The position numbers were made by a program, and so were the translations under genes. 7,721 bases of DNA from a virus (taxonomy: Duplodnaviria > Heunggongvirae > Uroviricota > Caudoviricetes): the IMG/VR virus record IMGVR_UViG_2711768000_000002; one strand, given 5' to 3'. The notes below the pieces were generated by a model. The model was not told where the DNA came from. It searched no databases and saw only the letters and a program-made list of their open reading frames with translations. Below are positions 1-5,892 of the stretch, in pieces. Within the stretch, counting starts at the first letter, position 1, and every line of letters begins with the position of its first letter.

Positions 1-108
1 CTCCAATGACTAGTCTAAAAACTAGTATTAAGACTATCACTTATTTAAGTGATACTGGTTGTCTGGAGATTCAGGGGGCCAGTCTAGTAAGGCTGCGAGA
101 GGTGAATA

Positions 109-275
109 ATGTCGCCATCATTACGCAAGGCTGTTGCAGTTGCTATTGGTGGCGGGGCTGTTGCTATAGCATCTGTGTTAATCACTGGCCCAGGTGGTAA
201 CGATGGTCTGGAAGGTGTCAGCTACATACTATACAAAGATATCATTGGTGTATGGACTGTATGTCACGGACACAC
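109..275 (+). CDS. SAR-type phage endolysin (T4-lysozyme-like muramidase, P21 R21-like), 5' portion only; 3' end lost in the N-run
   Basis: ATG at 109 preceded by GAGAGG (97-102). Translation [55 protein letters not shown] has a Gly/Ala-rich weakly hydrophobic N-terminal segment (signal-anchor-release type) followed by the E35...D44...T50 spacing that I recall as the catalytic triad of phage P21 R21-like lysozymes. The ORF runs into N at 276. Confidence 0.85.
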
Positions 276-575
276 NNNNNNNNNNNNNNNNNNNNNNNNN
301 NNNNNNNNNNNNNNNNNNNNNNNNNNNNNNNNNNNNNNNNNNNNNNNNNNNNNNNNNNNNNNNNNNNNNNNNNNNNNNNNNNNNNNNNNNNNNNNNNNNN
401 NNNNNNNNNNNNNNNNNNNNNNNNNNNNNNNNNNNNNNNNNNNNNNNNNNNNNNNNNNNNNNNNNNNNNNNNNNNNNNNNNNNNNNNNNNNNNNNNNNNN
501 NNNNNNNNNNNNNNNNNNNNNNNNNNNNNNNNNNNNNNNNNNNNNNNNNNNNNNNNNNNNNNNNNNNNNNNNNNN
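276..575. other. Run of exactly 300 N (assembly gap or masked bases)
   Basis: Directly visible in the sequence; all ORF-track proteins containing X stretches are artefacts of this run. Confidence 0.99.
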
Positions 576-875
576 CAGCGTGATGCTGATGCACTCGATG
601 CTAAATACACGAAGGAGTTAGCTGATGCGAAAGCTGAAAATGATGCTCTTCGGCGCAAGCTTGATAATGGTGGTCGGGTGCTCGTCAAAGGAAAATGCCC
701 TGTGCCATCCTCAGCCGAAACCTCCAGCGCCTCCGGCATGGGCAATGATGCCACCGTCGAACTCTCTCCAGTTGCTGGACGAAACGTTCTCGGTATCCGG
801 GACGGAATCATCAGCGACCAGACAGCATTGAGAATGCTTCAGGAGTACATCAGGATCCAATGCCTTGGGGGGTAG
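576..875 (+). CDS. Rz: Rz-type i-spanin, C-terminal portion (5' end lies in the N-run)
   Basis: Frame-0 translation after the gap, QRDADALDAKYTKELADAKAENDALRRKL..., closely matches the lambda Rz motif (..RDVAALDAKYTKELADAKAENDALR..) as I recall it. Stop TAG at 873-875. An embedded +1 frame lipoprotein gene (Rz1) is the hallmark arrangement. Confidence 0.85.
   Translation, partial: QRDADALDAKYTKELADAKAENDALRRKLDNGGRVLVKGKCPVPSSAETSSASGMGNDATVELSPVAGRNVLGIRDGIISDQTALRMLQEYIRIQCLGG
625..831 (+). CDS. Rz1: Rz1-type o-spanin outer-membrane lipoprotein, embedded in the +1 frame of Rz
   Basis: MRKLKMMLFGASLIMVVGCSSKENALCHPQPKPPAPPAWAMMPP...: signal peptide with lipobox (VVGC), then a proline-rich segment (PKPPAPPAW) resembling lambda Rz1. 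AAGGAG at 611-616 lies 8 nt upstream of the ATG. The gene sits wholly inside Rz in another frame. Confidence 0.8.
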   Translation: MRKLKMMLFGASLIMVVGCSSKENALCHPQPKPPAPPAWAMMPPSNSLQLLDETFSVSGTESSATRQH

Positions 876-963
876 CGGTAATTTTACTCATTATCCTTCA
901 AATCAGATTCTGTTGTCAGAGGAATGGGGGAAGCTGGATTCGCAAGAGCTTTTTATGGGCAGT

Positions 964-1473
964 TTAGCTAAAAAAAGGCAACACGAAGCTAAAACTACCA
1001 ACATAAAGTGCTGACCAGCTAGCAGCTGAAATCAGACTCACTGTATACACTTTCACTGGATGAAGTTGCAACATTCCTGCCACCAAAGGAGCAATATAAC
1101 GCAGCACGGCGATAAAGCGCGAAGTGAAAAGTATTGACACAGAGTTATTTTGCAACTGAAGGCGAACCCGTTCTATTGTATTGGAACGGCTTGATATTAT
1201 ACATGCAAGTTGAGGGATATGCCCAATTATTATACCAAGATGGTAATTAACGATAGTACCGCACCATGCGCCACTCATGACCGTGATTCCAGCTTCCCAT
1301 GGTGAAAGAGTCGTCTTGCTGACTGTAATTACAGTGGCCATCATAATTGATGCTGGTGGCAATATCGCCGAAATGAGTAAAGTGGATTTTGTGAACGCTA
1401 TTATAAAAAGAAGCCCCCATAGGCGATATGGATGAAGTACAAAATAGTTCATCAAAGCATTTATCCACTCCAT
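964..1473 (-). CDS. DedA-family inner membrane protein (SNARE-associated/DedA-like), AT-rich moron on the opposite strand
   Basis: Translation contains GAWCGTIVNYHLGIIIG and FTSRFIAVLRYIAPLVAGM, resembling the conserved DedA motifs (E. coli DedA GDAVNYTIGRLFG and ARFVPIVRTFAPFVAGM as I recall), plus several hydrophobic helices. The ORF track starts at a TTG (1476); I prefer the adjacent ATG (1471-1473), which has AAGGAAAG upstream on the - strand. Sampled 60-bp blocks are ~37% GC here versus ~62% in the head genes. Confidence 0.7.
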   Translation of the reverse strand: MEWINALMNYFVLHPYRLWGLLFIIAFTKSTLLISAILPPASIMMATVITVSKTTLSPWEAGITVMSGAWCGTIVNYHLGIIIGHIPQLACIISSRSNTIERVRLQLQNNSVSILFTSRFIAVLRYIAPLVAGMLQLHPVKVYTVSLISAASWSALYVGSFSFVLPFFS

Positions 1474-1526
1474 CAATGTCTTTCCTTCTGTGAATTTTTC
1501 TTTGCTATTTAACCGTGATACGACTT

Positions 1527-1556
1527 AATTTAGGCTTAAACACCTTACATTTACAA
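1527..1556 (-). promoter_or_regulatory. Candidate sigma70-like promoter for the DedA-family gene (-35 TTGTAA, about 18-bp spacer, -10 TAAATT on the - strand)
   Basis: Hexamers read by eye from the reverse complement of 1527-1556, about 55-85 bp upstream of the ATG; no other support. Confidence 0.2.
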
Positions 1557-1670
1557 GGTACTCCTGTGGGGGGCCCTGCCACGGAGCGTCGCAGGAGTGA
1601 GTGATGAGGAAGAATTAAAGCAACCTATTGTGACAGGCAGCGATAACAGTAAATCACAGGAAGCATAATC

Positions 1671-2435
1671 ATGGCAAAACCGGACTGGGAGGCCATCGAA
1701 TCGGCATACCGGGCCGGAGTCCTTAGCCTCCGTGATATAGGCGAGAAATACGGCGTTACAGAAGGGGCTATCAGGAAGAGGGCCAAAAAGCTTGGTTGGG
1801 CACGCAGTGGCGGTACGCAGGTTTGCAAAAATGGTACGCAAAAAAGGAAAGTGCGTACCAGCAGAAAGCCTGCCATTACTGGCCTTACACAAAAAAGTAC
1901 GCAACTAAAAACAGAATCTACACCGGATACGAAACCGATACGCGGAATGCGTACCGATCCCCCGACTAACCCATTCCAACCCGGTAACCAGCAGGCATTA
2001 AAACACGGTGGTTATGCCCGTCGCCTTCTGCTCAAAGATGAGGTGATAGAGGACGCTAAAGCGTTGACGCTCGAGGACGAATTATTTCGCCTTCGTGCTA
2101 ACAACCTTGTCGCTGCAGAGAATATTGGTCGGTGGTTGGTGTCGCTGGAAGATGCTAATGGGGACCAGGAAAGGAAGATGCTGATTGAAAATATCAGCGC
2201 CGCCGAGAAAGCAATGATGCGCAATACAGTTCGTATTGAGTCCATCGTTGGCACGCTTGCGACGGTAGGAAAAATATTTGCTGATACAGCCTACCGCAAG
2301 GCCGCCACTGATAAGGTGTCTCTGGAGGCTGATCGTCTTCGCCGTGATGCAGGTATTGATGATGGCAATGGAGAGCGTGACCTCAATGACTTCTACTCTG
2401 ACATCCAAACCGACGCTGAATCCGGCTTTACGTAG
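1671..2435 (+). CDS. Phage terminase small subunit (TerS) with N-terminal HTH and an unusually long C-terminal region
   Basis: AGGAAG 6 nt upstream of ATG 1671. The N-terminus MAKPDWEAIESAYRAGVLSLRDIGEKYGVTEGAIRKRAKKLGW is an HTH-like DNA-binding segment, followed by NPFQPGNQQALKHGGY, a motif I associate with small terminase subunits. It sits immediately upstream of the large terminase. Stop TAG at 2433-2435. Confidence 0.75.
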   Translation: MAKPDWEAIESAYRAGVLSLRDIGEKYGVTEGAIRKRAKKLGWARSGGTQVCKNGTQKRKVRTSRKPAITGLTQKSTQLKTESTPDTKPIRGMRTDPPTNPFQPGNQQALKHGGYARRLLLKDEVIEDAKALTLEDELFRLRANNLVAAENIGRWLVSLEDANGDQERKMLIENISAAEKAMMRNTVRIESIVGTLATVGKIFADTAYRKAATDKVSLEADRLRRDAGIDDGNGERDLNDFYSDIQTDAESGFT

Positions 2436-3789
2436 TTTCTGGACTATGCGGGCACGTAACAAAGTGCTTTATGGTGGTCGGTCATCGTCAAAATCATGGG
2501 ATGCCGCTGGCATTGCCATATTTCTGTCGAATAAATACACCCTGCGTTTTTGTTGTGCCCGTCAGATCCAGAATAAAATCGAAGAGTCGGTGTATACCCT
2601 GCTCAAAATTCAGATAGACAGGTTTGGTCTGCGGCACCGTTTCCGTATTCTGAACAACAAAATCATTAACCGGGTTACTGGCTCGGAATTTGTTTTTTAT
2701 GGATTATGGCGCAACATCGAAGAAATTAAGTCACTGGAGGGGATCGATGTGTTGTGGCTGGAAGAAGCCCACGCACTGACGGAATACCAGTGGAAAATTC
2801 TGGAGCCAACGATCCGTAAAGAGGGTTCGGAATGCTGGTTCATATTCAACCCCGGACTTGTTACTGATTTCGTCTGGCGCAACTTCGTTGTTGATCCGCC
2901 CGAAGGCACTCTCATCCGCAAAATTAACTATGACGAAAATCCGTTTCTGTCTGACACCATGCTTAAGGTTATCGACGCGGCGCGACGCCGTGATCCGGAT
3001 GGTTTTAAACATGTGTATGAGGGCGTTCCGGAGTCTGATGATGATGCGGCAATCATCAAACTGTCTTGGATAGAAGCCGCAGTGGATGCGCACAAAACGT
3101 TAAATTTCGAACCCAGTGGAAGAAAGCGTATTGGCTTTGACGTGGCTGACAGTGGTACAGATAAGTGCGCTAACGTTTACCGTCACGGATCCGTTGTTTT
3201 CTGGGCCGACGAATGGAAGGCCAAAGAAGATGAATTACTGAAGAGCTGCCAGCGTACTTATCAGGCGGCGCTGGAGCGTGAAGCAGATATTGTTTACGAC
3301 TCTATCGGTGTTGGTGCGTCTGCCGGTGCTAAATTCTCTGAAATTAACGCTGACCGGAAGAGCGAGAACGCATACGCGCGACGTGTGAATTACCAGAGGT
3401 TTAACGCCGGTGCTGGTGTGCATGAGCCAGATGACGAGTACAACGGCATCCCCAACAAAGACTTTTTCGCAAATCTTAAGGCTCAGGCATGGTGGCTGGT
3501 GGCTGACCGTTTCAGAAATACGTTTAACGCCATTAACAACGGAGAACAGTATCCTGTGGATGAGCTGATCAGCATAGATTCTCGTTGTCCGTTGCTTGAA
3601 AAGCTGAAACTGGAACTGACAACACCTCATCGTGATTTCGACCGTAACGGACGTGTGATGGTCGAAAGTAAAAAAGACCTCGCAAAACGCGAGATACCGT
3701 CACCAAACGTTGCTGATGCATTCATTATGGCCTTCGCGCCAATCGATACATCGCTGGATATCTGGGAACAGCTGGGGAGACAGGCCTGA
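2386..3789 (+). CDS. Phage terminase large subunit (TerL; ATPase plus nuclease)
   Basis: Walker A-like LYGGRSSSKSWD near the N-terminus, Walker B-like VLWLEEAH, and an acidic C-terminal nuclease-type region. The ORF is open from 2278; start chosen at ATG 2386 (GGAGAG at 2370-2375) so the TLNPALRSFW segment is retained. ATG 2359/2362/2368 and 2446 are alternatives. Stop TGA at 3787-3789 overlaps the portal ATG (tgATG). Confidence 0.85.
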   Translation: MTSTLTSKPTLNPALRSFWTMRARNKVLYGGRSSSKSWDAAGIAIFLSNKYTLRFCCARQIQNKIEESVYTLLKIQIDRFGLRHRFRILNNKIINRVTGSEFVFYGLWRNIEEIKSLEGIDVLWLEEAHALTEYQWKILEPTIRKEGSECWFIFNPGLVTDFVWRNFVVDPPEGTLIRKINYDENPFLSDTMLKVIDAARRRDPDGFKHVYEGVPESDDDAAIIKLSWIEAAVDAHKTLNFEPSGRKRIGFDVADSGTDKCANVYRHGSVVFWADEWKAKEDELLKSCQRTYQAALEREADIVYDSIGVGASAGAKFSEINADRKSENAYARRVNYQRFNAGAGVHEPDDEYNGIPNKDFFANLKAQAWWLVADRFRNTFNAINNGEQYPVDELISIDSRCPLLEKLKLELTTPHRDFDRNGRVMVESKKDLAKREIPSPNVADAFIMAFAPIDTSLDIWEQLGRQA

Positions 3790-5255
3790 TGGCACGAAAC
3801 AAACAAGCCCTGCGGCGAACTGTGCAGGCCACAGCTGATGGTTATGAGAATTTTATTGCCCGCGTAGGGATGCAGACACCTAACCAGCACTCAGCATCCA
3901 CCTACCGGGCTAATTTCACCAGTCGTAACCGCATGCTGGTGGAATGGTCCTATCGTTCATCCTAGATCATCGGCGAAGCAGTCGATGCTATCCCGGATGA
4001 TATGACCCGCAAAGGCATTCGCATCACTTCGGAAATTGATGCAAAAGATCGTGGCATTCTCGAATCACAACTGGATGAGTTGCAAATCTGGGATGCGCTG
4101 AATGACGTGCTGAAATGGTCGCGCCTCTACGGCGGCGCGGTGGGTTTCATCATGATTGAGGGGTAGGCACCAATGACCCCGCTGCGACCCGAAACCATCG
4201 GTAAGGGCAAGTTTAAGGGGATTCTCCCGCTCGACCGCTGGATGGTCGACCCGGCACTGACCCGCCGCATTAAAGATATGGGGCCGGACCTGGGTAAACC
4301 TGAGTTTTACGATGTGGTGACCACAGCAACGGGAATTCCTGCCTGGCGCATTCATCACAGTCGCCTGATTCGCTTTGATGGCGTCACGTTGCCATTTCAG
4401 CAGAAGATGACCGAGAACGAATGGGGAATGTCGGTTGTAGAGCGTATCTGGGATCGTCTTACCGCGTTCGACAGCGCTACTGTCGGCGCGGCGCAGCTGG
4501 TCTACAAGGCGCATTTGCGTACCTACAGCGTGGAGAAGCTACGCGAGCTTATCGCACTTGGTGGTCCTGCGTATGAAGCGTTGCTGAAGAATATCGACCT
4601 GATTCGACAGTTCCAGAGTAATGAAGGCATGACGCTCATGGACTCGCGGGATAAGTTTGAAACCCATCAGTACAGCTTCAGTGGTCTGGATGACATCCTT
4701 TCGCAGTTTGTAGAACAGATTAGTGGCGCTGTTGGTATCCCACTGGTGCGGTTGTTCGGACAGTCCCCGAAAGGATTTTCTACCGGTGATGCAGACCTTG
4801 CCAACTATTACGATCGCATCAGTTCGTTGCAGGAGAGGCGTTTACGTCTTCCGGTGCGGCGGATACTGGACATCATGCATCGTTCGGAACTTGGCAAGCC
4901 GCTGCCGGACGATTTCACGTTTGAGTTTAACCCGCTCTGGCAAATGTCTGATGTCGATCGCTCAACGGTGGCGTTAAACACCACCAACGCAATCAGTACG
5001 GCGCTGGGTGATGGTCTGATGACACTGAAAGCCGCTATGACTGATTTGCGAGAAAATTCTGACGTAACCGGCATCGGGGCATCCATTACCGACGAGGACA
5101 TCGAGAATGCCGAAGATGAAGCGCCGCCCGGCATCGGCGAACCTGATGACGAACCGCAGGAGCCGTCAGGCGGAAATCCGGTATCGAACCAGCCTACGCA
5201 GGATAGCGAGGGCGGTCGGAGACATCGTAAATGGTCGCTACGATGGTTCAAATGA
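3789..5255 (+). pseudogene. Phage portal protein gene interrupted by two in-frame TAG (amber) codons at 3963-3965 and 4164-4166; otherwise a continuous 489-codon frame
   Basis: ATG 3789 with GGGGAGA 8 nt upstream. Frame 0 translates MARNKQALRRTVQATADGYENFIARVGMQTPNQHSASTYRANFTSRNRMLVEWSYRSS*IIGEAVDAIPDDMTRKGIRITSEIDAKDRGILESQLDELQIWDALNDVLKWSRLYGGAVGFIMIEG*APMTPLRPETIGKGK... and continues as the 360-aa ORF 4173-5255. All three segments are in one frame and look coding. Its position between TerL and a MuF-like gene is the canonical portal position. Confidence 0.75.
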
Positions 5256-5889
5256 CAGTATCACGGAAATTATTGCGGCGCTGGAGCGTTACAGTGAAAT
5301 CATCACCCCCTGGGCGACAAAGGTCGCGGAAAACTTTACTGCGGACCTAACCCGGCAGAACGAGAAAGTTTGGCGGCAACACAGCAAGAACATCAGTCGC
5401 GAGCTCCGCAATCTTGTGGAAAGCGCTCCTGTGGGCCAGGTGATGCAATCCATCATCGCCGAACAGGTCAAGTACATCAAATCTCTGCCTCTCGAGGCCG
5501 CAGACAGGGTGTACGACATCCAGAACAAAGCGATAGAGGCTGTTGTCACCGGTGGTCGGGCGGAGCAGTTTGCTAAAGAGATTGCATCTACCGGCGATGT
5601 TGCTAAGTCTAGGGCCGATCTGATTGCCCGAACGGAACTGGGAAGAGCAACGGGCGCGCTGGATATGGCCCGAGCGATAGCTATTGGCTCGGATGGTTAT
5701 ATTTGGCGTACAGCCGATGATGGCGATGTCCGAGATTCCCACGATCACATGAAAGGTAAATTCGTCCGCTGGGATTCACCTCCAACTTTGGACGGCATGA
5801 CCGGCCACGCGGGCGAGCTGCCAAACTGCCGCTGCTATAAAGAGATCGTGTTTGTTCGCGTTCCATTCGCAATGAAAAGGGCAGCATAA
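5107..5889 (+). CDS. Phage head morphogenesis protein, Mu gpF / SPP1 gp7 family (minor head protein)
   Basis: C-terminal region ...WRTADDGDVRDSHDHMKGKFVRWDSPPTLDGMTGHAGELPNCRCY matches the conserved Mu F-like domain signature (His pair and CRC) as I know it, and the gene follows the portal as in SPP1-like head modules. GAGGA lies 8 nt upstream of ATG 5107; ATG 5116 and 5146 are alternative starts. The 5' end overlaps the portal 3' end in another frame. Confidence 0.8.
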   Translation: MPKMKRRPASANLMTNRRSRQAEIRYRTSLRRIARAVGDIVNGRYDGSNDSITEIIAALERYSEIITPWATKVAENFTADLTRQNEKVWRQHSKNISRELRNLVESAPVGQVMQSIIAEQVKYIKSLPLEAADRVYDIQNKAIEAVVTGGRAEQFAKEIASTGDVAKSRADLIARTELGRATGALDMARAIAIGSDGYIWRTADDGDVRDSHDHMKGKFVRWDSPPTLDGMTGHAGELPNCRCYKEIVFVRVPFAMKRAA

Positions 5890-5892
5890 CCC

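Follow-up and report, generated by a model that had tools for sequence, protein, structure and literature searches.

In phage 21, Q-antiterminated late transcription yields a pinholin, a SAR endolysin that is exported by Sec and stays inactive while tethered to the membrane, and the Rz/Rz1 spanin. Triggering of the pinholin collapses the membrane potential, upon which the SAR domain exits the bilayer and the enzyme refolds into its active form. The phage 21 cassette (S21, R21, Rz/Rz1) and the essD-rrrD-rzpD cassette of DLP12 in K-12 contain the same gene families as the locus described here, in the same order and with the same TAATG overlap between holin and endolysin. The likeness extends to a PF04971 holin, its ...KAARGE tail, the SAR segment, an E35/D44/T50 arrangement in the endolysin and an Rz1 gene placed inside Rz. 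Compared with phage 21 and DLP12, the holin of the present lineage is cut by IS2 after codon 66 and starts as the MYQMEK type, not MKSMDK, and the endolysin carries P41L, D127Y and R136C. Known IS2 insertions, such as IS2A in K-12 yaiX and those in the gal operon, involve the same 1,331-bp element, a 5-bp duplication and a two-ORF transposase. Polarity on downstream genes is the classical IS2 phenotype, for example in the gal operon insertions. PMC12095673 includes one polar gal insertion among its references. The insertion described here differs in having hit a prophage holin gene, where polarity would be expected by analogy. More broadly, disruption of prophage genes by insertion sequences is a hallmark of Shigella genomes.

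The window, that is, the whole stretch of DNA analysed, comprises 7,721 bases, of which exactly 300 are N (276–575). A sequence-only reading of positions 1–275 had described a SAR endolysin starting at 109 with no holin gene in the 108 bp before it, and had left three possibilities for the holin: a structured intergenic region in between, a position further upstream, or absence of the gene. That span stops where the N run begins, leaving most endolysin codons unreadable in the window. We consider it very probable that the pinholin gene in a lambdoid, phage-21-type cassette of a cryptic Shigella sonnei prophage was hit near its 3′ end by a transposing IS2, and that the lysis genes survive as a relic that is likely silent or poorly expressed.

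Bases 1–86 are the outermost 86 nt at the left (IRL) end of IS2, on the minus strand and read from the inside of the element outwards. Compared with our IS2 reference, the IS2A copy annotated in E. coli K-12 (1,331 bp), they form the reverse complement of nucleotides 1–86, with identity at 85 of 86 positions and the sole mismatch at window base 55. Window base 86 corresponds to IS2 nucleotide 1 and window base 1 to nucleotide 86; only these 86 nt of the element fall inside the window, and the start of transposase orfA (IS2 nucleotide 92, minus strand) lies 6 nt past its left edge. A three-way alignment of the window, an intact junction and an IS-interrupted rrrD locus splits cleanly into 1–86 and 87–275, and bases 1–86 align with the annotated IS3-family/IS2 end in E. 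coli 2018-01-1CC. A megablast comparison with phage records and with 5,426 complete genomes of E. coli aligns normal holin–endolysin junctions to the window solely from base 87 on, while the query 1–275 has up to 42 matches per E. coli genome, plasmids included, across the same 5,426 genomes. IS2 is found near related genes elsewhere too. E. coli 2018-01-1CC (L001, 2683–4516) carries it 84 nt into rrrD, in the SAR-coding part, within a Rac-like region beside trkG, and E. coli HCM-22C-2 (L019, 1267–2900) carries it ~190 bp upstream of a holin that is followed by a tail-fibre gene in place of the endolysin.

The same stretch was scanned for regulatory features. A permissive Rfam search returned no match for 1–275, a sigma-70 promoter scan found no promoter-like site in 1–275 or in the whole IS2 of the IMG/VR contig L004, and an intrinsic terminator scan of 1–275 found no terminator-like site. 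In the scans of 1–275 and of the whole IS2 of L004, the only two terminator-like sites occurred at chance frequency and lay within the holin body. These scans therefore lend no support to a regulatory spacer or to an outward IS2 promoter. The study in PMC12095673 tested only the right end of IS2. The open frame at 6–200 (frame 3) is the only long one in this stretch but has no support as a gene; we rejected it because it begins antisense in the IS2 leader and its overlap with the endolysin is in a different frame. In the IMG/VR contig L003 it reaches further into IS2.

Immediately beyond the element, bases 87–109 (plus strand) are what remains of the 3′ end of a class II holin (pinholin) gene of the P21-S type, collinear with intact junctions from base 87. 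They begin with the final two nucleotides of codon R65, continue through K66-A-A-R-G-E71 and end in the TAA stop at 107–109. Frame 2 of 86–109 accordingly translates as S-K-A-A-R-G-E-stop, with K-A-A-R-G-E at 89–106. Two statements about bases 1–108 hold in part. Frames 1 and 2 do both contain stops, but not throughout, as frame 2 stays open from roughly base 53 and ends in the holin tail; and 1–108 does lack a complete holin ORF, but the last holin codons are present at 87–109. The TAATG overlap is kept, the holin TAA sharing a base with the endolysin ATG (109–111), and in intact relatives a gene annotated 'class II holin family protein' overlaps the endolysin start by one base, without a spacer. 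The sequence-only reading had been staked on there being no holin ORF adjoining 109. A holin tail and stop do overlap the endolysin ATG, but they are merely the last 23 nt (87–109) of the gene.

The exact IS2/holin junction string occurs in two IMG/VR contigs, L003 (IMGVR_UViG_2526164617_000009) and L004, both 100 % identical to bases 1–275. It is absent from a genome collection with one genome per species, in which Shigella is presumably filed under E. coli. In both contigs the order is holin body (...GAAGATAAGCGTAAG), the element TGGATTTGCCCC...GGGGGCCAGTCTA, GTAAG, GCTGCGAGAGGTGAATAATG and the endolysin. GTAAG stands on both sides of the element as a target-site duplication, and its right-hand copy lies at window bases 87–91. 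The element measures 1,331 bp, is 99.2–99.6 % identical to IS2A and carries its transposase on the strand opposite the lysis genes. Its assignment to IS2 rests on full-length identity, the 5-bp duplication and two transposase ORFs (an HTH OrfA and a DDE/rve OrfB); the ORFs of the L003 element match PF01527 HTH_Tnp_1 and PF00665/PF13683 rve, and RefSeq labels the same element type 'programmed frameshift'. IS2 thus separates holin codon 66 from codon 67 and displaces codons 1–66 upstream by 1,331 bp plus the 5-bp duplication.

Removing IS2 and one GTAAG yields a 216-nt gene encoding a 71-residue holin, its sequence taken from the relatives and from window bases 92–109. The reconstructed protein falls into Pfam PF04971 ('Bacteriophage P21 holin S', 1.5e-35) and has two hydrophobic segments, the strongest at residues 36–54, and a charged C-terminal tail. 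A small pinholin upstream, which the sequence-only reading had suggested looking for, is found in the relatives as a P21-type holin body. Met1 and Met4 are both present (MYQMEK...) in L004 and in ten complete chromosomes (L008–L017), like the S21 start pair, and by analogy both starts may be used. The frame does not run uninterrupted up to the endolysin but is cut by IS2 after codon 66, and the holin is a disrupted representative of the P21 pinholins. The interrupted ORF encodes 94 residues, made up of 66 native residues and 28 residues read from the right end of IS2 (WICPYISRHLLSLNPLQARCRRYSRGER, net charge +5). L003 has A5 versus A6 at holin codons 5–7, which is a frameshift unless the homopolymer was misread in sequencing.

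The endolysin assignment of the sequence-only reading stands in full. Bases 109–275 (plus strand) encode the first 55 codons of a SAR endolysin of the R21/RrrD type, a GH24 T4-like lysozyme, as judged from the ORF and from PDB and Pfam matches. Basic residues R6 and K7 precede a Gly/Ala/Ser-rich, weakly hydrophobic SAR segment at residues 8–26 (nt 130–186, plus strand). Calculated from simple residue scales rather than with a trained predictor, this segment is 58 % G/A/S/T with a mean Kyte-Doolittle value of 2.22 and a Hessa sum of +0.65 kcal/mol, a marginal insertion energy like that of the RrrD/R21 segment (63 %, 2.11 and +0.78 kcal/mol). The catalytic residues E35 (nt 211–213), D44 (nt 238–240) and T50 (nt 256–258), all on the plus strand, have the Glu-8aa-Asp-5aa-Thr spacing, and the 55 visible residues differ from RrrD at 6 positions. 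Relatives identical over 1–275 supply the full-length protein, which matches PDB entries 4ZPU (RrrD), 3HDE and 3HDF (R21) at E values of ~1e-104 and supports the P21-like system well; in one identical relative it matches PF00959 Phage_lysozyme at 1.1e-43. Given its near-identity to R21, the enzyme is probably exported by Sec, held by an uncleaved membrane tether and released on depolarisation. A Shine-Dalgarno-like GAGAGGTG at 97–104 (plus strand), read directly in the sequence, has the same spacing to the ATG as in intact relatives and presumably serves as the ribosome-binding site.

The ten complete chromosomes were found through the exact sequence of the window's 254-residue terminase-small-subunit-like protein. 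All ten contain bases 1–275 at 100 % and bases 576–7721 at 99.97–100 % identity, and in each of them the two IS2 junctions and the 94-residue holin::IS2 ORF recur. One, CP019689, is Shigella sonnei 75/02 (PMC5447701), and the nine others are probably S. sonnei as well. Since these chromosomes are identical over the window, the source genome probably also carries a full IS2 and the holin body upstream; an IS2-mediated deletion in the source strain is a conceivable alternative.

The same chromosomes show what the N run stands for. From the counterpart of base 275 to that of base 576, 498 nt intervene in all ten and in E. coli VL40, and the run (276–575, masked or a gap) is therefore not length-preserving, so that coordinates past 575 are 198 nt short. 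It conceals endolysin codons 56–165 (110 codons) and approximately the first 58 codons of Rz. We also considered the 198-nt shortfall as a true deletion in endolysin and Rz, which is less likely given 498 nt in 10 of 10 chromosomes that are 99.97–100 % identical on both sides. At its left edge the window lies in IS2, at its right edge in IS1. In an exact protein look-up, the longest contig containing the 254-residue protein was 5–10 kb in 4,258 of 5,111 index blocks. The window is what short reads typically yield for this locus, a contig cut off on each side by a multicopy insertion sequence, and because short-read assemblies break at IS2 and IS1 the holin was invisible to the sequence-only reading.

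Upstream of the holin, the chromosomes fall into two variants. In the first (seven of the ten, and L004), an IS110-family element ends ~10–14 bp before the holin ATG (~5257–6690 in L008, L010, L011, L013 and L015–L017; ~1830–2300 in L004), with no Q-like gene within the 6.7 kb upstream that was covered. In the second (L009, L012 and L014), a Q-like gene, a tRNA-Met, an IS3-family element and a poly-G tract precede the holin; the tract varies from about G9 to G11 between genomes and lies just before the holin start (~6660–6690). The contig L003 (1–2500 and ~4700) shares the IS2 junction but departs from the window in the 3′ half of Rz, where identity is just 94 %. Next to it comes another kind of terminase small-subunit gene, which we take to be lambda Nu1-like and which is cut by another IS. 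This arrangement points to prophage–prophage recombination later than the IS2 insertion.

Downstream of the endolysin lies a two-component spanin. The 3′ part of the Rz i-spanin gene occupies 576–875 (plus strand; 156 codons and PF03245 Phage_lysis in relatives), and the Rz1 o-spanin lipoprotein gene (625–831, plus strand; PF06085 Rz1, 3.8e-21), with an intact VVGC lipobox, is nested in it in another frame, the Rz frame ending at 875. Rz1 is identical to the copy in E. coli VL40 (NZ_CM177011.1), and Rz is intact in all ten chromosomes. VL40 and FDAARGOS_944 carry a sister prophage 99.5–99.8 % identical to the window over 87–7638 and matching it in gene order from endolysin through cement protein. 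Unlike the window lineage, VL40 is free of IS2 and IS1, its holin is continuous, its portal gene is undamaged and its capsid and tail genes are present; this intact prophage comprises holin, endolysin, Rz, DedA-family, terminase, portal, head and tail genes. The DedA-family (VTT domain) membrane protein is encoded at 964–1476 (minus strand), between the spanin and terminase genes, and looks like moron-type cargo; its protein sequence is identical to the VL40 copy. The 254-residue protein (1671–2435) occupies the position of the terminase small subunit, lacks a recorded Pfam match and is called 'hypothetical' in VL40. The 3′ end of its gene overlaps the start of a PBSX-type large terminase by ~50 nt.

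Further along, the prophage has plainly decayed. The portal gene (DUF1073 / Phage_portal_3; 3789–5255) is split into three ORFs by the nonsense mutations W59* (base 3964) and Q126* (base 4164), relative to the 99.8 % identical intact copy in VL40. Homology to VL40 stops at 7638, and the last 83 nt (7639–7721, plus strand) are what we take, from the known IS1 terminus, to be the end of IS1; an IS1 transposase follows in the chromosomes. The element begins 4 nt after the ATG (7635–7637) of the major-capsid (DUF2184) gene. Beyond IS1, the complete chromosomes continue with host genes (a lactonase, a LysR-type regulator and aconitase), and the capsid and tail genes have thus been deleted. With two portal nonsense mutations and the capsid and tail genes removed at IS1, the prophage cannot make particles; it is a decaying remnant.

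In its ancestral form the cassette would have worked in the phage 21 mode, depolarisation by the pinholin releasing and activating the SAR endolysin. At present, transcription into the endolysin and spanin genes would have to cross 1.3 kb of mostly untranslated, antisense IS2, where Rho-dependent polarity is to be expected. Only the last holin codons and the stop still adjoin the endolysin ATG, with the endolysin keeping a ribosome-binding site of its own. The region of the late-gene regulator, for its part, appears to have been separated or replaced upstream by further IS elements. Polarity across IS2, the lack of an outward promoter-like site and a regulator that is cut off or absent together suggest that the cassette is poorly expressed or silent, and the endolysin–spanin genes are most likely a weakly expressed or silent relic. 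Where the Q gene remains (3 of the 10 chromosomes), Q-modified polymerase would be expected to resist termination and read through.

SAR endolysins such as P1 Lyz and R21 can lyse slowly without a holin. It is worth asking whether the split cassette still functions or has been domesticated, the holin fusion forming pinholes, the endolysin and spanin being expressed by read-through of IS2 and the host keeping the whole as a lysis or release module. The fusion ORF is intact in 10 of 10 chromosomes, as is Rz, and the endolysin, whose ribosome-binding site is retained, is an intact 165-residue ORF in 9 of 10, the exception (L017) being a frameshifted 187-residue version. Truncations of the S21-68 C terminus to K56 still form pores, and fusions there are tolerated (bioRxiv 10.1101/2021.04.20.440580). 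Because the tail past K56 is dispensable in S21-68, the truncated holin may not be inactive, and by analogy the holin::IS2 fusion may still form pores. Against a functional module, the endolysin differs from that of VL40 by three nonsynonymous changes (P41L, D127Y and R136C) and no synonymous one (L012, 8241–8738), including an Asp conserved in distant solved lysozymes (D127), and in one strain it is frameshifted. P41L, at a variable position, is visible at window base 230, and D127Y and R136C are hidden under the N run; the L013 endolysin retains D127 and R136. The regulator region is moreover IS-separated or absent in the chromosomes examined, IS2 offers no outward promoter-like site, and the portal gene of the same remnant carries nonsense mutations. 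Finally, at 14 differences in ~7.3 kb, about 1 kb staying intact is expected by chance. A functional or domesticated cassette is therefore unlikely. Selection keeping the lysis genes intact was considered separately and set aside; the data are too few, and the three nonsynonymous against zero synonymous changes in the endolysin point the opposite way.

A second insertion of this kind raises the question of a landing site. In E. coli RM10740 (L018, NZ_CP043821.1, 1509–3100), an IS3-family element lies in the last codons of the holin, in the same orientation and ~14 bp downstream of the position used here, again with the endolysin ribosome-binding site retained. This element is only ~69 % identical to IS2, however, and lies in another prophage, with a 15-bp direct repeat (CTGCGAGAGGTGAAT) in place of 5 bp; the holin there is extended by LFLPPYFQTGVVS. 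The RM10740 insertion is an independent event. Two different elements ~14 bp apart and in the same orientation, in S. sonnei and in E. coli RM10740, are the basis for regarding the last codons of P21-type holins as a recurrent landing site of IS2-group elements, where silencing of lysis is tolerated or selected and the fusion still forms pores. We regard this as improbable, and the near-coincidence may reflect a preferred target or merely the large number of genomes sampled. If such a landing site does exist, insertions there would uncouple the pinholin from the SAR endolysin with both proteins essentially intact.

The other explanations can be set against the disrupted pinholin gene more briefly. 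A contig that starts and ends in multicopy repeats is prone to misassembly, and the IS2 end could in principle be a chimeric contig end that hides an intact holin. Both junctions and the 5-bp duplication nevertheless recur in ten finished chromosomes and two independent contigs, making an assembly artefact very improbable. Equally improbable is a holin that is truly absent, with the SAR endolysin acting without one: the window has no complete holin ORF, but the 3′ end is present at 87–109 and the first 66 codons lie upstream of IS2 in 12 of 12 junction-sharing sequences (10 chromosomes and 2 contigs). Of the three options in the sequence-only reading it is the holin further upstream that proved correct, codons 1–66 lying beyond IS2 in every complete chromosome containing the window. 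As for bases 1–108 as a structured, intergenic regulatory spacer that would part the endolysin from a distant holin, the short palindromes read by eye in 1–86 (ACTAGT..ACTAGT and ATCACTTA..TAAGTGAT) belong, with the terminal inverted repeat, to an IS2 left end that is identical at 85 of 86 positions, present in many copies per genome and bordered by a target-site duplication, and with no Rfam family, promoter-like or terminator-like site in 1–275 and no spacer in intact relatives this reading has next to no probability.

The disrupted pinholin gene illustrates how a neighbouring gene that seems absent at a contig edge can merely reflect a contig broken inside a multicopy IS, and a few codons of the 'missing' gene may persist beside the IS end. 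For the organism itself, IS disruption of prophage genes in Shigella is already well known, and the arrangement is already contained in many finished public chromosomes. The biological weight of the insertion is accordingly small, and it represents an ordinary form of prophage decay.
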